Assembly (NCBI GenBank): GCA_964106645.2
Contig: OZ067039.1
DNA length: 64,000 nucleotides
Reading direction: 5' to 3' (one strand)
Origin: Podarcis pityusensis
Taxonomy: Eukaryota
Positions within the stretch are counted from its first letter, which is position 1. Every line of letters begins with the position of its first letter. Position numbers and translations under genes: made by a program. Below the pieces are notes generated by a model. It saw only the letters and a list, made by a program, of their open reading frames with translations, searched no databases and had not been told where the DNA came from. Shown piece after piece: positions 2,771 through 63,755 of this stretch.

Positions 2771-3195
2771 TTTTCAGCCATCTCTTGCACATAGCTTGTT
2801 CCCAGGGGCCTTGCTGGGATTAGCTGATAAGGGATTCCATGATGCATGATATGAAATAAAACACCTCTCCCAAAAGACGCTAAGCTGGGCCAAAGAGAGA
2901 AGAGTTGGGTTGTAGGAATGGTTTCGTACAGGCACTGAGTTGGCTTTGCTTATTGGAGTTCCCTTTGGTGTTTGTCTCCATCTATGGTTTCTGGGGGGGG
3001 GGGTTTTGCAGTAGCTCTTTAGACCTGAGTACTCAGCTTAAATTTGTTTGGAACTTGTACTTGTTGAACCTTTGTGGAGCTGGGTGGCTGTTTTCCTGAA
3101 AGTTGAGATGTTTTCTGTCTAGCATCTCCACCATCCTAGGCGGTGTAGTTTGTGTATGGTTACACCCCTTTGTGGAGAAGTTTATAGGCCACCTG

Positions 3196-4277
3196 AGGAA
3201 AAATCGAAACTAGAGTCAGAATTGTTGGAACCAAAGACCAAGGTACTTTCGAGAATGTATAACTTGCTGCTTAAATGGAACACTCAGGATGAGACAGTCA
3301 AATCAGCCATGATAAAATGGGCTCAGGACATTGGGTACAACATTATGTTTGAGGACTGGGAAAGGTTATGGACCACTGGTATGAAATTCACGGCATGTAA
3401 TGCCTTGAAAGAGAATATTATGAAAATGATATACAGGTGGTACATGACCCCAGTCAAGCTTGCTAAGATATATCACTTGTCTGATAATAAATGTTGGAAA
3501 TGTAAGGAGGCTGAAGGGACATTCTTTCACCTCTGGTGGACTTGTCCAAAAGTGAAGGTCTTCTGGGAAATGATATATAATGAGTTAAAGAAGGTGTTTA
3601 AGTACACCTTTCCCAAGAAACCAGAGGCCTTTCTATTGGGCATTGTCGGCCAGAAGGTGTTAAAGAAGGATAGAACCTTTTTTATGTATGCAACTACAGC
3701 AGCAAGGATTCTCATCGCAAAATACTGGAAGACCCAAGATTTACCCACACTGGAAGAGTGGCAGACGCAATTGATGGACTACATGGAATTGGCCGAGATG
3801 ACTGCCAGGATCCGAGATTTGGGAGAAGAAGCAATAGAGGAGGATTGGAAAAAATTTAAAGATTATTTACAAAAATTTTATAAGTTATATGAATGTTAAG
3901 AATTCGCATGATTAGGGAAATTCAGCTCCAGCAATAAGATTAAGGTATGGGAAACTAAGTTATATAAAGGAAGGACTAATGTTTAAAAGAATATTATATA
4001 TGTTATTAGTGTAAATTGAAAATAAGTATTTTAAATGTAAACCACAAGTATTTGAAAGAACAAAAGAATGTACGAAATAAGGTTATAATTTGCTGAAAAA
4101 CTTTATTGTAAAGAACGCACGGTGAGGGAGACGTGGGGAAGTCCGGTTGGTTATGAAAAAATGCTTTGAAAGAATGACCTTTTTCTTTTTCTTTTTCTTT
4201 TCTGTTATTTCTTTGTATAACTGACTTTGTATTTCTATTTGGAAAAAAAGCAATAAAAAATATTTAAAAAAAAAAAA
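3196..4277 (+). mobile_element. 5'-truncated L1-clade LINE (ORF2 C-terminus, 3' UTR, polyA)
   Basis: Frame open to the stop at 3899, with the CWKCKEAEGTFFHLWWTC knuckle. AATAAA near 4252 and an A-tail. 21-bp TSD GAGAAGTTTATAGGCCACCTG at 3175-3195 and 4278-4298. Confidence 0.9.
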
Positions 4278-51173: not shown

Positions 51174-53056
51174 TCCTAAGAGGAAGGATCTCTTTTTTTT
51201 TTGCCTCTTGTCTTGAAGGAAATACACGAGTCTTAATTTGTGAGCCACGCATGACATCCCCTTCTTGCTAGAGTAGTGGCAGGGTGTCCCTTCTTAAATT
51301 CCCAGGCTGGCTGGCATCCTTGTCCAGTCTTGGCGGTGGCCGGCCCTGGAATGCCCCACTAGGGAGTGGGTAGTGCCAGCCTGATCTCACAGGCACAGAA
51401 TGTGCTGGAGAAATGTGTTGCTGAGATTCTTGCGGGGGCTCTTGGCAGCCAGGCCGCGGTGCAGCCGTGGGGTGCTGGAATGGAAGCTATGGACAGTCCC
51501 GTGGGCTGGCGGCTGTGCAGCACCGGCCAGGTTTTGCCGTGGGAACAATGAGGCACTTCAGAGGCCCCTACGCTGCCTATATAGGGGGCGCAGGGAGGGT
51601 TTGCAAAGCAGCCTCCATGCTTTCCCTGTGGAAATGCTGCTGCAGCGCAAGGGCGTCATGGCACAAGGGTGATGCTCACCCTTTCCTACCTGGTTGCTGG
51701 GGCAGCCTTCGGTGGGATAAAGTCCATCCAGGTAACTGGAAGTGCCTACTTGGCTTTTGCATGGAGTGAATGGGGAGGTGGGAGATGCTGCGGCCACAAA
51801 TTGCAGGCGGGGTGTGTGTGCATGTGTGGATGGGGAGGTGGGCGCATTGAACTTTGCGTGCTATTGCCGGGGTTGGTGGTGTTGAAGGGCACTTCAGGGA
51901 GGGTGCATTTATTAACACTCTTTCTCTGGGCACTCTTGCCTAGAGCTGGAGAAGCGAATCCCGGGAGAAGAGGCTGAGGATGGTTTTGAGGTGTCTGCCC
52001 TGCACGGGGGCCAGCACAGTGCCAAAAACAGCCTGTAATGTAGAACTGGGAAACCCTGGGCAGCCCTCCCCCTGCCCCCTGACCAAGGTGAGGCTGCTTC
52101 TCCCTCAACTGTATTTATGACTGTGTCTCTCTCACTGGGGGCAGGGTGGAAGGAGCAGAGCAGCCGCCACTGGCCACACAAGCCGAAACAAAAGCAGGGG
52201 TACCAGCATGGGACAACAAGCGTCCATCCAAGGGCGGGGTGGGCGCAATGGGCTGCGTTACTCTGCATTCAGGTCCCCTGGGGCTTCCTAGCTTTCCCAT
52301 GCAGAAATAGGACTGGGGGCAGAGGCCTGGAAGGTGTAGCGCCGGCCATTAACCTGCCCTCTAGCCCAGCCTTGTGCCCTCCAGATGCTGTTGGTTTCCA
52401 ACTCCCATCAGCCCCAGCCAGCATGGCCAAGGGTCAGGGATGCTGGGAGTTGTAGTCCAGCAAAAAGCCAACAAATGGACACCAGGTGGGGAAAGCCAGC
52501 CTTAAACCTTTGTCGCTTTGCCTATGGGACTGAGCTCCATCTCTTGAGTCTGCAGAGAATCCTGGGCAGATGATGCTTTGCCAGTTTTTGCTGCTTCTGT
52601 CCTTGTTCATCAAAGCTTTTCTTGCCAGCTGCACCGCTCATGGAGCGTCTGTGTTTCCAAAGGGAATTGAAAATTGGCTGCCATTAAATGTCCTAGGAGC
52701 TGTTGCCCTGGATCCGTGAAACCAAGCTTGAGCTAGCAAACCGCCAATTCTCAATTTGTGTTTGTGTGTGTGTGCACTGCTATCTCTGTCACCCCACCCC
52801 CTAAGTTTTAGTGTTTGGATCTGGACGGGAGCGTATGAGCAGCTGCGCCCTTCACATGGCTGTGGCATGGTTCATGCGTGTGCTCAACAGTGTATGTGGC
52901 TGCTTGAAGTTGAATTGCACCTGCACAGTCCCAGATGGCAAGGCTGTTTGCATGAAGCGGCTTCCCCATGCAGCTATCCCCTCTACAAGAACAGGGCATG
53001 GCTGAAGCTGTCCCGTCTGAGCGGAGGGAGGTCTGCTTCACACAAGTGGCTGGCTG

Positions 53057-54497: not shown

Positions 54498-54639
54498 GAA
54501 TTTGATAATGCCGAGGGAGAAGAGTATGCTAGTGAATTCTCAGCCCAGGGCTCACCCGCTACCCAGAATGGCCCAGAGGTTTACATTCTGCCTCTCACCG
54601 AAGTCTCCTTGCCCATGTCCAGGCAACCTGGGCGCTCAG
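54498..54639 (+). CDS. AATK: AATK/LMTK1 coding exon (equivalent to exon 3): juxtamembrane region
   Basis: ccccag| acceptor, CAG|gtaagt donor. 142 nt, phase 0 to 1. Encodes EFDNAEGEEYASEFSAQGSPATQNGPEVYILPLTEVSLPMSRQPGRS, matching AATK. Confidence 0.96.
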
Positions 54640-56092
54640 GTAAGTTGCTGAACCCTCTGCATTTCGGATTTTGTCCACCCTTTCAGTTTTAGCAACGGTG
54701 CACATTTGCAACATGCAAAATAAGAGCATGACCTTCGATTTTCACATGGCTAACCAAACCTGGAATCTCCATTCTTGCAATAATGAGTATGGAACAGAAG
54801 TTCTGTTCTTGCAATAACAAGTATGGATTAGAATCCCCCCCCCCCCCACAAAAGTGGGCAGAAAACTCCTTCCTTTAACCTTCGTGATTTTGCACTGTTC
54901 ACTATGGTTGAAAAGATGTAATGGGTTGCCTATGTGCACCCTCAAAGCAACTATGTACTGACACATTTATTATGGCACTAACACATTTGTTATGACATAC
55001 GCTTTCCTTGATTAGAGTGCCATGATAAATGTGTTAGTCTTTCAAGACTCTCTTTTGTTTTTGTTGCAAGAGGCTACTAATACAGCTACCACCCTCTGGA
55101 AGTTTTTGCCATGCCCATTCAGTGATCTTACATATGAGTTGTTTCCTAGAGGAAGCTGTCACAGGTGTACAGAGAAAAGTGAAGCAGGTGCAGTAGTGGT
55201 CACTACTATTGTTACCTGGTGCTTTTTGTAGAGTGACATAAATGAGAAGCCAAAGCCCAGCCTGCCCCAGGAGCTTACAGCCTCAGGAGAAGAGGCAGAT
55301 GTGATCAGAAGACCGTGGACAGTGGAATTACACATTTTTATTTTATTTTAAAAACCTCTAACCTCAGGCTTAAACATGTGATCTGCTGAAGAGTTGGAAG
55401 AAATGCAAAACAGATTAGATGTTGTCTTTTGTAGGCATAGGAAGATGCAAAATCTAGAGCTGTGCAGAGCATACAATCAGAACGCCAGATGTTCCGTGCA
55501 ACACAGAAGCTCTCGTCCTTTTGCCAAAATATGTCAGTCCAAGAAAAATACACCTTAAGCTGTTGTATATTCTGTCTCATCCCACCGGGACTTAAGGCAG
55601 CAACAATTGCCCCTAATGAGCAGGCGATCTTAAAGTGGCCAAAACAAGGCAGTATGCTTACGATGGTATGGATCCAAAGGTCACCATAGGGGGGGGTCTA
55701 ACATCTGGGTTTCCCCAAGTGTCCGTCCCCCCCAACTCCCAGCAAGATAAAAGCTCCAAGAGATCCCTTCTGTCTGCAGCCCTTTTAGCTCAGCTATCTG
55801 CCATATATTGCAAGGCTCCCCCCCCCCCACTCGCCTTCTCCTCCACACAATGGATGGTCTCATTCCTGCTGCCCACAGCCCACTTGCAGCTGCTTGGTGG
55901 ATACTGTGTCTGGGTGGATCAAGTCCTCGTTCCAGTCATGGAGTTCGGTTCCCTTCGCCCACATCTATCCTCTATGATGTAGATGCTTCTGTTGGCACTC
56001 ACAGCAGCTGCAGCAGAGGGGGGCCGGCAGGGTTGGTTTTACGTGCGCAGTGTGCGGGTTTGTTTGCAACTTCCTGGGAGCTGCTTTCTGCC

Positions 56093-56433
56093 TGTTATGT
56101 ACTGAGTTGAATAGGATCCAAACTGTAGCAGTCTGATTGGTCCTAGAACAATAGGATCCAAAAGGCAGCAGTCTGATTGGTCCTAGAACAATAGGATTCA
56201 GAATGCAGCAGTATGATTGGTTGGCAGGAACCACCCAATCCTGCTCCAGATAGAAGTGAATCCACAACCTGATTGGCTTACAGTAGAATTCCAGAATTAG
56301 CCAATCATGTGCAGCCCATTGTGTAATAATGTATATAAAGCAGATACTGTGAGGGGACATTTATTCATTCCTCCTCACCACTATGAGCTGAATAAAGAGC
56401 ATGAAATCACTTTGCGACTCTGAGTATATTTCA
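56093..56433 (+). repeat. 5' LTR (341 bp)
   Basis: TGTTATGT...TATTTCA. About 2.8 copies of a 40-bp unit at 56110-56221, six CCAAT/ATTGG boxes, TATATAAA at 56332 and AATAAA at 56391. Confidence 0.96.
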
Positions 56434-56434
56434 C

Positions 56435-56452
56435 TGGCGACGAGGATGGGAT
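56435..56452 (+). promoter_or_regulatory. Primer binding site complementary to tRNA-Ser(GCU)
   Basis: TGGCGACGAGGATGGGAT lies 1 nt after the LTR. It is the reverse complement of ATCCCATCCTCGTCG-CCA, the recalled 3' end of vertebrate tRNA-Ser(GCU). Confidence 0.88.
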
Positions 56453-56558
56453 CCCGCTGAGCTGACTGCCACACACAGCACCGCAGCACCGCCAACTGCC
56501 GCACCGCTGCCTCGCACCGTGTATCCAGGCTTCAGCTCCGGGGCACAAGGAACTCAGA

Positions 56559-59500
56559 ATGGCAGCCAACAGCAGCTTCTCGCCATTCAACCCAGCATCT
56601 GGAGACTGGGAAGCGTACGCCTCCCGTTTCACCTTCCTCCTAGAAGCCAAAGGGGTCACCGACGAAGAAGACGCCAAGAAGAGGGCGATATTCTTCAGCG
56701 TCTGCGGAGAGGAGACGTTTGAAATCGCCCGGGCTCTCCTTGCGCCTGAAGACGTCGCTACTGTTCCATACAAAACAATAATGGAACAGCTGAAGGGGCA
56801 CTTTTCGCCGCAGCCCTCAGTGGTGGCTCGTCGAAATGCCTTCTACGCAAAGCGGCAAGCCCCTGGGGAAACCATAACTGGGTTTGTGACCTCTCTCCGC
56901 CAAGCCGCCCGGTTCTGCAACTTCTCAGAGCTGGAGAACATGCTTCGTGACCGCCTCGTCGGTGGCCTGAAGGATGAGAAGCTGCAACGGCGCCTCTACG
57001 CTAAGAAGGACCTAACGTTCCAGGTCGCTCTGGAGGAGGCCCTGGCAACAGAAGCTGCCGAGAGGTCGACCCAAGAGGCACAGCCGAGCCTGCCATCCCA
57101 ACCGAGGGTCCACCATGAAGACCTCACCGACGACTCAGGATCCGACAGGGAGGAGGTGCACCGAGTACAGCAGCGCACTCAAGCAGCGCACAGACCACAG
57201 CTGCCTCGACGAGAAGGAGGGAACTGCGCAAGCTGCGGGGAGAGTCACGAGAGGAGGACCTGCCGTTTCCGCAACGCAGAGTGCAGGCAGTGCAGAAAAT
57301 CGGGACACATCGCCCGGGTGTGTCGGGCTCGGCCCACCCGACACCAGGCATCAGATGACCAATCCAAGAGCCCCAGGTCCCGGGGCCCAACGCACCAAGG
57401 CAACTCGACGGAGCTCACGGACTTCCAGGTATACCAGTTGCCCCACCCCAACGTAGAGAAAATTTATGTAGAGGTACAGATAGAGGGGGCCCCATGCCGC
57501 ATGGAGCTTGACACGGGTTCAACTCTATCCATAATCTCGGCAAGGACCTTAAGGAAACTGTGTCCCACTGGGGGTCCCAAACTCAGGCCGGCCCCATTCA
57601 CCCTCCGGGACTTCCAGAAACGTAAGGTCCCCACAATGGGGGTGGGGACCTTCAGGGTGCAATACCGAGGGCGGACGCGGCAACTGGACTTGCTTGTGGT
57701 CAAGGGCCCCTACATTAGCTTACTGGGATTGGCATGGTTTGGACCACTGGGGCTAGCTGTCACCGGGGTGAACCACACTAGCTTACAAGTGGACGTGGAC
57801 GCCATATGCAAGGAATTTCCAGGGGTTTTCGATGGGAAATTGGGACAGTATACGGGCCCCCCCATTGCGCTACAGCTTGACCCCGCAGTACGACCGGTCA
57901 GGCTCAAGGCCCGCCGGGTCCCGTTCGCCTTGAAACCCCGTATAGACGAGGAATTGGACCGACTCGTAGAGCAAGGAGTGCTGGAGCCGGTGCCTAATGC
58001 TCCCTGGGAAACCCCAATCGTCACACCCGTCAAGCCTAATGGTTCGGTCCGCATCTGCGCAGACTACAAATGTACCATAAACAAGGCCCTCACGGCCCAC
58101 GCATACCCAGTGCCAGTGGTCAGCCATGTCCTTGCCACCCTGGCTGGGTCGAAAATTTTTGGCAAGCTGGACTTGGCCCAAGCATATCAACAGCTGCCAG
58201 TAGATGAGGCCACAGCAGAGGCACAGACGATTGTGACGCACAGAGGAGCGTTCAGGGTAAAGCGGCTGCAATTCGGTGTCAGCGTGGCACCAGGCATATT
58301 CCAGAATATAATGGACTCTCTCCTTAAAGGGATTCCTGGCGTCACCCCCTTCTTCGATGATGTGTTGATTGCCGGCCCCACACCAGAGGAGTTTGAGGAC
58401 CGCCTCCGCACCGTTCTGCACCGTTTCCAGACGGCGGGTCTCAAGGTGAAGCGGGAAAAATGTCTACTAGGAGTGCCTCAGGTGGACTTTCTGGGATTTA
58501 TGGTGGACGCAGAAGGGGTCCACCCGACTGGGGACAAGGTACGGGCCATTTGTGATGCCCCAGCGCCCAAGAGCAAGACTGAACTTCAGGCCTTCTTGGG
58601 ACTATTGAACTTTTACCATTCCTTCCTTCCCCACAAGGCGGCGGTAGCGGAGCCCCTACACAGACTCCTGGACAAGCGGGCCCCTTGGGTGTGGGGCCAG
58701 CGCCAGGAGGCCGCATTCCAGGCAGTCAAGGACTTGCTTGTCTCAAACTCGGTCTTGGCACACTTCGACGAGAGGCTGCCGGTGGTGCTAGCATGCGACG
58801 CCTCACCCTATGGCATTGGAGCTGTCCTGGGGCACCAACTCCCGGATGGAAGAGAGGTACCGGTGGCGTACTTTTCCCAGACACTCAACACAACCGAGCG
58901 GAACTACTCGCAAATCGACAAGGAGGGTCTGGCAATCGTAAAGGGAGTAAAAAAATTCCATGATTTCTTGTACGGGCGGCCCTTCACCGTGGTGACTGAC
59001 CACAAGCCGTTGCTTGGCTTGTTTGCCCCCGAAAAGCAGACCCCCCAAGTGCTGTCTCCTCGCGTCCTCAGGTGGTCAATTTTCCTTGCCAGCTACCAGT
59101 ATGCACTGATTCACCGACCTGGGAAGGCGATGGGCCATGCGGACGCCCTCAGCAGGCTACCACTACCGGAAACAGGCCCTGACCCAGCACCTGCACAAGA
59201 GGTTATGAGCCTGGAGCTGCTTCCCGACCGCCCCATTCAGGCACAAGAAGTTGCACACCATTCCAAGAAAGATAGGGTCATCTCCCGGGTCCTGGACTGG
59301 GTGTGGAGGGGATGGCCCAGCAGCAGCCCCGGGCCAGAATTCGCCGGCTACACAACCCGCAAACATGAACTGTCGGCCCACAAGGGGTGCCTGTTATGGG
59401 GAAGCAGAGTCGTTGTTCCCCAGCCCCTCTGCAAAAGGGTCCTCACAGCCCTACACGAGACACATCCAGGGGTAGTAAGAATGAAGGCCCTTGCCAGGAG

Positions 59501-60635
59501 TTATGTGTGGTGGCCGGGGATCGATGGAGAGATAGAGGCCTGGGTCAAACACTGCCAGGCCTGCCAAGAATCCCGCCCAGATCCCCCAAGGGCCCCAGTC
59601 CAGTCCTGGGAGTCCGCCCGAGCACCATGGTCACGCCTGCATGTGGATTTCGCTGGCCCCTTTCAGGGGAAAACATTCTTCATAGTGGTGGACTCCTACA
59701 CCAAATGGCTGGAAGTCGCACTGGTACCGTCCACTTCCACGTCCGCAGCCATCCGGGTACTACGCAGGCTGTTTGCAACCCACGGGCTCCCTGACACTCT
59801 CGTCTCAGACAACGGGACTGCATTTACGTCAGGAGAATTCCAAACCTTCACAGCGCAGAATGCCATCCGCCACATCCGTTCGGCGCCGTTCCACCCTGCC
59901 ACCAATGGCCAAGCAGAACGCATGGTGCGGACCACCAAGGACACCCTTCGCCGCATGACGCAAGGGGACTGGGAGTACCGCCTTGCCACATTCCTTCTAG
60001 CACAGCACAGCACCCCCAGCTCAACGACTGGCCGGAGCCCCGCTGAACTACTAATGGGTCGGCGCCTTGCAATCAGATTGGACCGCCTTCACCCCGATAG
60101 AGCTCAGGATGAGGTAGTGGTGGGGGAAGGCAGGAACCCCCGGACCTTCGAGGCCCAGGACCCAGTGTACGCAAAGAATTTTGGGGCAGGCCCAGCATGG
60201 GTACCCGCCACAATCACCAGGGTCACTGGCCCCGTGTCGTACGAGGTGCTAACGGATGGGGGGCAATGCTGGCGCCGCCACTGCGACCAGATACGGCGAC
60301 GATTCCCGGGAGAAAACCAGGAGGAGGACAGGTCAGAGGAGTCCCAAGGGAACAGCGGGGCAGTGAGGCCCATAGAGCAGGAGGGGCCAGCAGGAGAGGC
60401 AGAATCAGTAAATACAGAGAGGACCCGTGAGGCCGAAAGGACACCGGAACCAGAACCACGACTGAGCGAGCCGGTTGCACCAGACCAAACAGCCGCATCA
60501 CAGCCAGCATCCTTGGAACACGAGCCAGAACCCGGAGCCCGGACCAGGGAACACCCCAGGCCACAACGCACACGTAGGCCGCCGGCATACCTTGAGGACT
60601 ATGAATGCGACCTCCCGGGCAGGACTGGAACTTAG
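56559..60635 (+). CDS. Gag-Pol polyprotein, 1358 aa
   Basis: Gag with two Cys/His knuckles (CASCGESHERRTC, CRQCRKSGHIARVC). Protease LDTGS. RT motifs DLAQAYQQL, QFGVSVAPGIFQ, FFDD. RNase H CDASPYGIGAVL and TDHKPL. Integrase HETH..CQAC and HVDFAG/SDNG/AERMV (DDE), then a GPY/F-like C-terminal module. Confidence 0.96.
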   Translation: MAANSSFSPFNPASGDWEAYASRFTFLLEAKGVTDEEDAKKRAIFFSVCGEETFEIARALLAPEDVATVPYKTIMEQLKGHFSPQPSVVARRNAFYAKRQAPGETITGFVTSLRQAARFCNFSELENMLRDRLVGGLKDEKLQRRLYAKKDLTFQVALEEALATEAAERSTQEAQPSLPSQPRVHHEDLTDDSGSDREEVHRVQQRTQAAHRPQLPRREGGNCASCGESHERRTCRFRNAECRQCRKSGHIARVCRARPTRHQASDDQSKSPRSRGPTHQGNSTELTDFQVYQLPHPNVEKIYVEVQIEGAPCRMELDTGSTLSIISARTLRKLCPTGGPKLRPAPFTLRDFQKRKVPTMGVGTFRVQYRGRTRQLDLLVVKGPYISLLGLAWFGPLGLAVTGVNHTSLQVDVDAICKEFPGVFDGKLGQYTGPPIALQLDPAVRPVRLKARRVPFALKPRIDEELDRLVEQGVLEPVPNAPWETPIVTPVKPNGSVRICADYKCTINKALTAHAYPVPVVSHVLATLAGSKIFGKLDLAQAYQQLPVDEATAEAQTIVTHRGAFRVKRLQFGVSVAPGIFQNIMDSLLKGIPGVTPFFDDVLIAGPTPEEFEDRLRTVLHRFQTAGLKVKREKCLLGVPQVDFLGFMVDAEGVHPTGDKVRAICDAPAPKSKTELQAFLGLLNFYHSFLPHKAAVAEPLHRLLDKRAPWVWGQRQEAAFQAVKDLLVSNSVLAHFDERLPVVLACDASPYGIGAVLGHQLPDGREVPVAYFSQTLNTTERNYSQIDKEGLAIVKGVKKFHDFLYGRPFTVVTDHKPLLGLFAPEKQTPQVLSPRVLRWSIFLASYQYALIHRPGKAMGHADALSRLPLPETGPDPAPAQEVMSLELLPDRPIQAQEVAHHSKKDRVISRVLDWVWRGWPSSSPGPEFAGYTTRKHELSAHKGCLLWGSRVVVPQPLCKRVLTALHETHPGVVRMKALARSYVWWPGIDGEIEAWVKHCQACQESRPDPPRAPVQSWESARAPWSRLHVDFAGPFQGKTFFIVVDSYTKWLEVALVPSTSTSAAIRVLRRLFATHGLPDTLVSDNGTAFTSGEFQTFTAQNAIRHIRSAPFHPATNGQAERMVRTTKDTLRRMTQGDWEYRLATFLLAQHSTPSSTTGRSPAELLMGRRLAIRLDRLHPDRAQDEVVVGEGRNPRTFEAQDPVYAKNFGAGPAWVPATITRVTGPVSYEVLTDGGQCWRRHCDQIRRRFPGENQEEDRSEESQGNSGAVRPIEQEGPAGEAESVNTERTREAERTPEPEPRLSEPVAPDQTAASQPASLEHEPEPGARTREHPRPQRTRRPPAYLEDYECDLPGRTGT

Positions 60636-60645
60636 AGGGGAGGGG
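60634..60645 (+). promoter_or_regulatory. Polypurine tract
   Basis: AGAGGGGAGGGG directly before the 3' LTR, overlapping the ORF stop codon. Confidence 0.92.
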
Positions 60646-60987
60646 TGTTATGTACTGAGTTGAATAGGATCCAAACTGTAGCAGTCTGATTGGTCCTAGA
60701 ACAATAGGATCCAAAAGGCAGCAGTCTGATTGGTCCTAGAACAATAGGATTCAGAATGCAGCAGTATGATTGGTTGGCAGGAACCACCCAATCCTGCTCC
60801 AGATAGAAGTGAATCCACAACCTGATTGGCTTACAGTAGAATTCCAGAATTAGCCAATCATGTGCAGCCCATTGTGTAAATAATGTATATAAAGCAGATA
60901 CTGTGAGGGGACATTTATTCATTCCTCCTCACCACTATGAGCTGAATAAAGAGCATGAAATCACTTTGCGACTCTGAGTATATTTCA
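60646..60987 (+). repeat. 3' LTR (342 bp)
   Basis: Identical to the 5' LTR by eye except one extra A (gtgtaaataat vs gtgtaataat). TATATAAA at 60886, AATAAA at 60945. Confidence 0.96.
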
Positions 60988-61168
60988 CTGCCCCTCCAAG
61001 GCCCTGCCATACATGAGTTGTTCTTCACCAGAGGCATTTTCACATCTAAAAGAGTCTTTATGCAGTGCGTATTGTATGACGGCACCTGCCAGTTATGCGT
61101 TTGGGGGCTTTTGCTTTCCCCGCACCTACTTCAGAATCCTCTGCCTGCCCCCCCCCCCCGGGAAGATA

Positions 61169-61410
61169 CAGTGGTACCTCGGGTTACATACGCTTCAGGT
61201 TACAGACGCTTCAGGTTACAGACTCTGCTAACCCAGAAACAGTACCTCGGGTTAAGAACTTTGCTTCAGGATGAGAACAGAAATCGTTCTCCGGCGGTGT
61301 GGCGGCAGCAGGAGGCCCCATTAGCTAAAGTGGTGCTTCAGGTTAAGAACAGTTTCAGGTTAAGAACGGACCTCCAGAATGAATTAAGTACTTAAGCTGA
61401 GGTACCACTG
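61169..61410 (+). mobile_element. Tc1/mariner MITE, family A
   Basis: Same TIRs and body, TA TSD. Confidence 0.88.
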
Positions 61411-62653
61411 TACTCCAAATCCAGCATGGAAAAGCTCCGGTGCAAGAGCACCAGGTGAAAGTGCCGGGAGCAGAAGTGGCAGCATCTGACCTTCTTTAGT
61501 TAAGCACCGAGCAGCCCACGTTTCAGGCGCTGGTGCTTTTTGCCTGTCTCCACACCAGATGCAACACTCTGCTGCTGTTGTTTCATTCCCCCTTTAACTA
61601 GTATCTTCCGGATTGTTCCGGCTTCTTAGATGGGCACCCCAGCCAGTGACTCGGCAGTGCCACCTTGTGGGTTCAGGATGGCAGGGCAACCCCCCATTTA
61701 GGCCGTGGCGGGGTGGGGTGGAGGTGGCAGGGGAGGAAATGGGACACAAAATAGGAATGCAGGGCACTTTTTTCCTAAACGGGATGCGGTACCTGAAAAG
61801 CAGGCATTCCGACCCGGGCACCCAGGCTCCCTCCATGATCAGGCAAGGCAGGGAACAGGGAGATAGGCCATCTCCAAGCCTCAGTGTAGGTGTTTGACCC
61901 CCTCAGCAGAAGTCACTCCCTGCTCCTGTGGCCTGAGATCACTTCCTCTCCTCCGCTACCTCTGGAGACAAAGGCCTTTTGGTCCCCAAGTCCCACAGGC
62001 CCCGCATTCCTTCCCATGTGACCTGGCGAAGGAATCCAGGGCTTGCTCTGCTGTGTGGGATTGAGCCAGCTAGCTGGACAGCGACTCCCCTCTGCTTTGC
62101 CCACACAATTCTTGCCTGGTGCGGCCCTGCTGTGCACTAAATGGGCCCTCAGAGAATGGGTCCAGTGTCCAGATACAGCCATCGCCGCTGGGCGCAACAA
62201 TGGGGCCTTTGCTTCTCCGTGTGATGGGGAGCAGTGGCGTCTGGCACTGAGGGGGCGAAGGGGTGGCACCGCCTGCTTTTTTGGGGGGAGGAGGGACATG
62301 GGACTGCCCAGAAGGGTGGACGCGACACAGCCACTTTCTGCTGCCTGGAGGCTTGGAAGTTCGCCTGTCTATAGCAGAAGGCTCCTCCTGCGTATATGCG
62401 TTTGAGAGAGAGTCTCGCTCACCTTCAATCCTGGATCTACCAACGGGGTAGAGATGCAGCAAAGTCACGTAGCCTGGCCTCAGGAGCAGCTGAGGTGTCC
62501 GCTTCTCTCTGCTGATCCCCGTGTGCCTGATCCTTTGGGAAGCTTCCTGCCCCAGACCCCGCTCTTCTGCGGAAAGTTAGGATGAGGCAGCAGGCAGGGA
62601 ACAAGCTGGCAGGGCATGCAGAACTTCAAACCGCTCTGTATGCTCCTTCACAG

Positions 62654-62733
62654 TGCAGCTGCTCAAATCCACTGACCTGGGACGCCATAGCCTGCTATAC
62701 CTCAAGGAAATTGGCCATGGATGGTTTGGCAAG
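62654..62733 (+). CDS. AATK: AATK/LMTK1 coding exon (equivalent to exon 4): start of kinase domain, Gly-rich loop
   Basis: tcacag| acceptor, AAG|gtaagc donor. 80 nt, phase 1 to 0. Encodes (V)QLLKSTDLGRHSLLYLKEIGHGWFGK with the GxGxFG motif. Confidence 0.96.
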
Positions 62734-62751: not shown

Positions 62752-62799
62752 ACTGATCCCATCTTGTTGATTTATACTGATCCCATATTGTTGATTTAT
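62752..62799. repeat. 24-bp tandem duplication just after the exon donor
   Basis: ACTGATCCCAT(C/A)TTGTTGATTTAT twice. Confidence 0.85.
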
Positions 62800-63636: not shown

Positions 63637-63755
63637 GTGTTCCTCGGTGAGGTGAATGCAGGGCTGAGCAGCACTCAGGTGGTAGTGAAGGAACTCAAAG
63701 CCAGTGCCAGTGTTCAAGATCAGATGCAGTTCCTGGAAGAGGCCCAGCCTTACAG
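63637..63755 (+). CDS. AATK: AATK/LMTK1 coding exon (equivalent to exon 5): kinase subdomains II-III; gene continues beyond the window
   Basis: tcccag| acceptor, CAG|gtaagt donor. 119 nt, phase 0 to 2. My translation: VFLGEVNAGLSSTQVVVKELKASASVQDQMQFLEEAQPY(R), containing the VVVK catalytic Lys and the alphaC Glu. Confidence 0.95.

Follow-up and report, generated by a model that had tools for sequence, protein, structure and literature searches.

A Ty3/Gypsy-type retrotransposon in an AATK intron of Podarcis pityusensis and its family of about 1,000 copies with variable primer-binding sites

An element in the AATK intron

We analysed a 64,000-nt stretch of contig OZ067039.1 from the wall lizard Podarcis pityusensis (assembly GCA_964106645.2; hereafter the window), in which a long terminal repeat (LTR) retrotransposon lies at positions 56093..60987, in sense orientation inside an intron of the kinase gene AATK (LMTK1). 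An earlier reading made from the letters alone (the sequence-only reading) had described it as an intact Gypsy element of near-zero age. Our results indicate an intact Ty3/Gypsy copy that is one of about 1,000 and is absent from another sample with the same species label. The family probably expanded in a burst within the last ~0.1 million years, with its primer-binding site (PBS) rewritten from host serine tRNA; we give this reading as a whole a probability of roughly 85%. The features of the locus are as follows (TSD, target-site duplication; ORF, open reading frame; RT, reverse transcriptase; PPT, polypurine tract).

54498..54639, +, AATK/LMTK1 exon 5′ of the insertion (aligned by tblastn to LMTK1 of Podarcis muralis, P0189)
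56088..56092, +, left TSD, CTGCC (sequence; the X4 contig, with an empty site, has it once)
56093..56433, +, 5′ LTR, 341 nt, TG...CA (sequence comparison)
56435..56452, +, PBS of 18 nt that complements one tRNA-Ser(GCU) isodecoder at its 3′ end
56559..60635, +, gag and pol fused in one ORF of 1358 aa, env absent (ORF list, domain search)
57225..57323, +, pair of arrays resembling zinc knuckles in gag, aa 223-235 and aa 242-255 (motif scan)
57468..57740, +, aa 304-394, aspartic protease with LDTGS at aa 317 (weak Pfam match, below the cut-off; motif scan)
58062..59096, +, RT (aa 502-648 by Pfam, with FFDD at aa 598), then RNase H (aa 712-846) (Pfam, motif scan)
59415..59897, +, integrase zinc finger and core, aa 953-1113, 3′ of RT/RNase H (domain search)
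60634..60645, +, PPT, 12 nt, overlapping the stop codon (sequence)
60646..60987, +, 3′ LTR, 342 nt, AATAAA at 60945 (sequence comparison)
60988..60992, +, right TSD, CTGCC (sequence)
62654..62733, +, AATK/LMTK1 exon 3′ of the insertion, where the kinase domain begins (tblastn)
63637..63755, +, following kinase exon of AATK/LMTK1 (98% identity to squamate proteins named LMTK1)

All the parts named in the sequence-only reading were found, with chance excluded: the perfect CTGCC duplication, the gag-pol frame without a stop, the 12-nt PPT, the 18-nt PBS, which has 0 mismatches to two tRNA-Ser(GCU) genes of the same genome (the CCA end of the tRNA being assumed), and the near-identical LTRs, which differ by 0 substitutions and 1 indel (AA vs AAA near 56325). 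The odd one is the 5′ LTR, as AAA is present in both LTRs of most other family copies, and its AA is either a later mutation or an assembly slip. This 5′ LTR is a length variant, one 28-nt unit below the common 370-nt form, and contains four ATTGG and two CCAAT matches, a TATA-like motif at 56332 and AATAAA at 56391, all with a putative regulatory function. The first gag array is spaced C-X2-C-X3-H-X4-C, compared with the canonical X4. The claimed contrast between a CpG-rich interior and CpG-poor flanks was reproduced (observed/expected 0.65 inside, 0.22-0.30 in the flanks), and the LTRs reach just 0.07. Relative to its family, the copy belongs to the 342-nt LTR form and carries two private changes in its interior. 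A candidate second element at the end of the window was rejected; the last letters are LTR-start-like, and the neighbouring stretch holds no LTR.

P. muralis LMTK1 aligned on five + strand stretches of the window, in agreement with the earlier assignment of the host gene to AATK/LMTK1 and of the insertion to its sense strand. The intron spans 54640-62653, 8,014 nt compared with 3,114 nt without the insertion (2.6-fold), so that it is indeed more than doubled; its ends are splice sites read from the alignments, and those of one script were 1-2 nt off.

By its sequence, the element is classified as a Ty3/Gypsy LTR retrotransposon (Metaviridae), having two direct TG...CA LTRs with a short TSD, a tRNA PBS, a PPT, and the Gypsy domain order protease-RT-RNase H-integrase. 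The best solved-structure relative of its RT is Ty3 RT (E 1.6e-64, 222 bits), whereas foamy virus RT scored 108-117 bits and MLV RT 73-77 bits; the element thus differs from retroviruses, its RT being far nearer Ty3 than MLV or foamy virus. An endogenous retrovirus is not indicated, given the closeness to Ty3 and neither room nor ORF for env between integrase and PPT. In the Gmr1 clade, the other fused-ORF vertebrate Gypsy group, the integrase lies upstream of RT; this clade was rejected, since the integrase here is downstream of RNase H. The architecture (a single fused gag-pol, a short element, short LTRs and two CCHC arrays) suggests a Mag-like element, the rows of our pol tree being database hits with no named Mag reference. 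Two CCHC arrays in the nucleocapsid are given as a criterion of the Mag clade in a passage of PMC2577118.

Among described systems, the Mag-type elements of fish, as far as the portions of PMC11117352 describe them, have a fused gag-pol of 1,330-1,365 aa (1,358 here), a length of 4.7-4.8 kb (4.9 kb here) and short LTRs, and share the two zinc-knuckle arrays in gag (also PMC2577118), but their LTRs measure ~210 nt compared with 330-370 nt, and they number 4-20 copies per element compared with ~1,000. Yeast Ty3 has the nearest solved RT, the same domain order, a tRNA primer and no env. The closest entries are 'K02A2.6-like' proteins of Zootoca vivipara and Podarcis raffonei (NCBI), a 133-member cluster of the same family annotated merely as uncharacterised host proteins; pol identity is 96% to the cluster representative and 99% to the P. 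raffonei members.

The occupancy of the site was compared in five of the 15 listed runs that contain at least half of the sequence words, and the insertion was absent in four of the four samples other than X1, the run that is probably the source. For organism B, a single 1,934-nt contig of X4 spans 55000-56092 (record 220-1311) and 60988-61209 (record 1-224) with a single CTGCC and no element. In X2, which shares the species label of X1 (organism A) and comes from another sample and study, 55000-56092 is matched by a contig of depth 23.8 that extends 65 nt more, into the right flank, and another of equal depth (23.8) covers the right flank to ~61058. The fit ends at 56092 in X3 (organism B, left side only) and starts at 60988 in X9 (organism D, right side only). 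The suggestion that the insertion is polymorphic was therefore supported by the empty site in X2, and the orthologous site lacks it in two related species (X3/X4 and X9). The X1 contigs include no empty allele and do not cover 61027-61091, a gap from which zygosity is not deducible. The interior/flank contig depth ratio was ~1,500 in X1, at least 1,000 in X2 and ~70-250 in X3 and X4, a hint that the burst is mostly confined to organism A, contig depth being no copy number. Many more insertions of the family probably segregate.

Size, age and constraint of the family

Exact matches to a 30-mer in pol numbered 993 genome-wide (487 on the + and 506 on the - strand), those to the LTR-PBS junctions of the two main PBS forms 397 and 593, and those to an LTR 27-mer 1,838, so that LTR motifs are less than twice as numerous as pol motifs. 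We counted with exact patterns because a DNA search with the LTR undercounts (128 candidates); a 1,301-nt pol query returned 1,117 candidates, and all 40 of the 40 scored were 100% identical. The family comprises about 1,000 copies, or about 4.9 Mb and 0.3% of the genome (993 copies of ~4.95 kb). The AATK copy is thus not singular, being one of ~1,000. Solo LTRs are rare, with 2 confirmed by their own duplication among the first 100 LTR matches.

Two samples were examined. The first consisted of the first 100 pol matches on C1, of which 94 entered the main analysis (14 were preselected for 100% identity and 6 added later); two full LTRs were found at 84 of the 94 loci, and among these 84 the LTR pair was identical in 73 and the frame open over at least 1,380 codons in 71. 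The independent sample contained 60 copies on C2, 30 per PBS form, and yielded 57 two-ended copies; 53 of them were at ≥99.5%, 44 of these with identical LTRs and 45 with an open frame. Perfect target-site duplications flanked 102 of 110 copies, and 52 of 57 in the independent sample. The mean pairwise distance was 0.19% over the 4,212-nt interior (153 copies). Internally deleted or older copies were excluded from comparisons (3 in one, 16 of 119 and 11 of 60 in others).

LTR pairs differed at 7 of 29,902 sites in the first sample (82 pairs, after dropping one internally deleted copy with unequal LTRs and one older copy) and at 11 of 19,288 in the independent sample (53 pairs), 18 of 49,190 when pooled. 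At a median squamate rate of 1.75e-9 per site per year, as given in part of PMC12142722, these correspond to mean ages of 67,000 and 163,000 years and a pooled age of 105,000 years (95% interval 62,000-165,000), values inflated by RT and assembly errors and deflated by choosing copies via an exact match. For a single 341-nt LTR pair without a substitution, the upper 95% bound is ~2.5 million years. Of the near-zero age proposed earlier, recency thus holds through the pooled family, and is not readable from the one LTR pair. Older members at 95-97% identity and solo LTRs at 89-97% in the same genome show earlier waves.

Coding changes seen in a single copy were synonymous in 92 of 202 cases, compared with 59.3 expected from the observed spectrum, and shared coding changes in 20 of 25, compared with 7.5 expected. 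This excess indicates that copies giving rise to others had passed a filter for protein function, a pattern that agrees with many active sources and with neither one master copy nor an artefact.

Several structural variants accompany the main form. The common LTR is 370 nt long, and the 330- and 342-nt forms each lack a tandem unit; in three copies (L071, L078 and L173) the element's own LTRs are unequal by one 40-nt tandem unit (330 and 370 nt), which suggests that length variants recur by slippage. A 931-nt mini copy (L144, G000:C1:56166000-56169000) has two 370-nt LTRs around ~190 nt of 3′ interior and its own duplication, and a near-duplicate (L145) lies 11 kb away beside an assembly gap. 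At G000:C2:34403407-34408005, two LTR-PBS junctions stand 4,573 nt apart on one strand, as expected of a tandem element with three LTRs; this pair, at C2:34.40 Mb, was skipped in the independent sample.

Primer-binding sites and host serine tRNAs

The PBS varies across the family at positions 56444 and 56446. Only 3 of 4,212 columns had a minor letter at ≥10% (104 copies), and 2 of them lie in the PBS (2 of 4 in a larger set). Among 84 copies there were two main PBS forms (50 and 24 copies), two rare intermediates (4 and 4) and two singletons. Host tRNA 3′ ends, compared in 8 of 12 loci, match three forms: that of the window corresponds exactly to 2 Ser(GCU) genes, the major form to 4 Ser(GCU) genes and one uncalled remnant, and one intermediate to 4 Ser(GCU) genes and one gene called Ser(AGA). 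For the fourth form (4 of 84 copies), two patterns found no matching tRNA gene in the genome assembly; it may have formed as a repair hybrid between the main two, because the reciprocal form is equally rare (5 and 5), the alternative being an unassembled tRNA gene. In each of the four runs, which represent two species, the 56446 G form made up 66-70% of contig depth.

The PBS form was independent of a gag marker at 56990 (11:25 vs 12:25). Pairs of copies sharing a rare variant agreed at 56990 in 138 of 168 cases (chance 84) and at the PBS in 77 (chance 78); for pairs sharing at least two rare variants the figures were 69 of 69 at 56990 and 30 of 69 at the PBS (chance 32), and copies of the independent sample alone gave the same trend (12 of 14 at the gag marker vs 6 of 14 at the PBS). 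From this population pattern, it is quite likely that the 3′ end of the primer is copied into the new DNA and that the PBS can thereby switch isodecoder.

The retroviral primer-copying route is often drawn for LTR retrotransposons generally, so that the mechanism is not new; the evidence for it in a vertebrate Gypsy element may be. According to passages of two reviews (PMC7472051, PMC5371799), the primer is copied into plus-strand DNA by HIV and MLV but not by Ty1 and Ty3. Ty3 also has a split PBS that is described as not perpetuated by tRNA copying (passages of PMC5371799), whereas the lizard PBS is a contiguous 18 nt, apparently reset from tRNA. A parallel is seen in the mouse ETn/MusD endogenous retroviruses, in which two PBS forms, two mismatches apart, are scattered over the tree and primer copying is speculated upon by the authors (PMC7472051); there the common form mismatches the primer, whereas here three forms each match a different host tRNA gene.

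The putative cycle would begin with LTR-driven RNA translated into one gag-pol polyprotein, as the anatomy allows, and priming by the matching tRNA-Ser(GCU) at the PBS. Plus-strand synthesis from the PPT would read into the last 18 nt of the primer, whose copy would enter the new DNA and could switch the PBS to another isodecoder. Integrase would then insert the product with the 5-bp duplication and the little sequence preference observed. The synonymous excess suggests that many source copies, selected for protein function, fed the burst, of which the polymorphic AATK copy would be a young segregating passenger. We slightly favour the fuller proposal that a vertebrate Gypsy element is now amplifying in a single species of wall lizard, where each haploid genome would hold ~800 copies with an open frame and the PBS would be reset from the tRNA-Ser(GCU) isodecoder pool in nearly every round, unlike Ty3.

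A separate observation concerns the left junctions, where 11 of 167 two-ended copies (e.g., L062, L083, L157 and L199) have G or GG in place of the last 1-2 duplication bases or, in one of these 11, an added GG; the G's resemble the PPT end, and none occur at right junctions. They could be either a retained integration overhang or a polishing error. In the first sample they were present in 6 of 37 window-form copies (one with a further change) vs 0 of 63 of the major form, a post hoc comparison; as a mark of the primer-written PBS form they were rejected by a pre-stated prediction on 60 new copies. With this prediction failed, the junction G's identify neither the form that the primer mostly writes nor a form favoured by tRNA-fragment silencing.

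Several points weigh against a recent burst with a rewritten PBS. The age depends on a borrowed squamate rate and on exact-short-match samples that favour young copies, the ages of the two samples disagree (67,000 vs 163,000 years), and the 95-97% members show that not all of the family is young. Mobility today, raised as a possibility in the sequence-only reading, stays conjectural. The empty site in the same species amounts to one contig in one sample, and the X1 contig enters the LTR by 22 nt (0 differences), below the 31-nt bridging rule. At the PBS, sister pairs are non-independent (7 clusters, 4 of them mixed for the PBS and 0 for 56990), their agreement equals chance and lies below that of strict half-and-half one-parent inheritance, and the junction-G prediction failed (1 of 27 vs 4 of 30 in new copies; pooled p = 0.12).

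A real burst with a PBS inherited from the element RNA, as in yeast Ty1/Ty3, would account for part of these data if point-mutated forms were kept by their fit to tRNAs and shuffled by 5′ template switching. A stepwise path exists, the middle form being one step from each main form and also tRNA-matched; an R-region variant of the LTR at 56362 is found on both gag backgrounds; and passages of the reviews state that the Ty3 primer sequence is not passed on (PMC7472051, PMC5371799). However, markers 0.3-3.7 kb from the PBS remain mutually linked (69 of 69), whereas the PBS differs between copies that have a rare variant in common at 56726 or 56810, <400 nt away from it. Inheritance would thus require recombination to be almost free over <300 nt and scarce over the 3 kb that follow. 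The two main forms are also present in the older 95-97% copies and, at similar depth, in a second species. We therefore consider inheritance unlikely and continue to prefer copying of the primer. That the near-identity of copies and LTRs was instead created by errors of assembly or polishing, or by gene conversion between old copies, is scarcely credible. The junction G's could be produced by mis-mapped 3′ LTR reads, and the sole LTR indel of the AATK copy lies in a homopolymer, but each copy has its own duplication and a mean of 2.6 private changes with a synonymous excess, rare LTR lengths (369, 371, 374, 329 and 330) are common to both LTRs of a copy and not to its neighbours, and the site is empty in other samples. 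Read-built contigs carry the same sequence with 0 differences at ~22,000-fold depth vs 13-15 for the flank. The assembly collapse that the sequence-only reading had named as a possible source of LTR identity accordingly finds no support.

The recent and numerous copies might also reflect a horizontal transfer into the lizard lineage followed by a burst in a naive host, an idea raised earlier and not supported for this lineage. Rough contig depth suggests ~tenfold fewer copies in organism B, and tick elements fall within the wider squamate clade of relatives. In a quick-method pol tree of 58 rows hand-picked from protein matches, however, support is 100 for a group of the element with P. raffonei (99%) and Zootoca (96%), and Lacerta and gecko elements come next, following host kinship (99% aa for P. 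raffonei; for Zootoca 96% in pol and 90% overall); the best non-squamate matches reach 67-70%, and older copies and solo LTRs share the genome. Vertical descent would suffice, with no recent transfer needed, and transfer appears very improbable. A further possibility is that the AATK insertion is itself functionally important, its sense LTR poly(A) signals truncating transcripts before the kinase exons or its 3′ LTR driving a shortened kinase RNA. The insertion sits immediately ahead of the AATK kinase exons, and the 8-kb intron has no A(A/T)TAAA hexamers on the sense strand apart from the LTR pair, so that early AATK termination is possible. Against this, ~1,000 copies without strand or site preference genome-wide make many intronic insertions expected by chance, so that this one needs no special cause, and the downstream exons are apparently intact. 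An important effect on AATK therefore seems improbable, and the copy is most likely a young, segregating passenger, near-neutral or mildly harmful.

Significance and neighbouring features

The single AATK insertion is ordinary; the interest lies in the scale of the burst and in the PBS pattern. One autonomous LTR element has added ~4.9 Mb within ~100,000 years, and all LTR elements make up 2.4% and 1.4% of two Podarcis assemblies in the figures given in part of PMC10214862. At least one insertion segregates, making the family a likely source of wall-lizard structural variation and of markers for population history; in anoles, full-length non-LTR insertions segregate at low frequency, as stated in part of PMC11303007. 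The family provides genome-scale evidence for the retroviral primer route in a vertebrate Gypsy element, testable by sequencing alone. If the fuller proposal is correct, the 1,000 insertions would record which serine tRNAs the lizard germline makes available, and would serve as a natural experiment on the influence of tRNA fragments on PBS choice outside mammals. The literature searched (at abstract level, with most subscription journals outside it, and also supplements, whose repeat libraries could name the family) held no description of this family, of a Podarcis Gypsy burst, of a tick-squamate Gypsy transfer or of isodecoder switching at a Gypsy PBS.

Tick elements (P0014, P0010/P0179 and P0026; Rhipicephalus 67%, Ixodes 69-70%) nest in the squamate clade on another branch, sister to another lacertid family at support 97 in the quick tree, a lead towards a putative old tick-reptile transfer. 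Two other similar lacertid families (P0019 cluster, 67 members; P0017 cluster, 121) are represented in Zootoca and Podarcis by many annotated members of full length, and recent bursts in parallel may thus be common among lacertids.

In the neighbourhood of the insertion, a 247-nt MITE-like element of very high copy depth with 25-nt inverted ends occupies 61166-61412; contigs from organisms B and D extend into it as well, suggesting that it is older than the retrotransposon. Just 3′ of an AATK splice donor, a 24-nt tandem duplication lies at 62752-62799, where X1, X2 and X9 contigs differ from the window. Between two conserved exons, a 48-aa stretch (51944-52087) is 100% identical to part of predicted P. 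muralis LMTK1 isoform X2 and is possibly an alternative or mispredicted exon. Far upstream, a 258-aa open stretch at 3123-3896 (+) resembles what we take to be the C-terminal part of a LINE ORF2.

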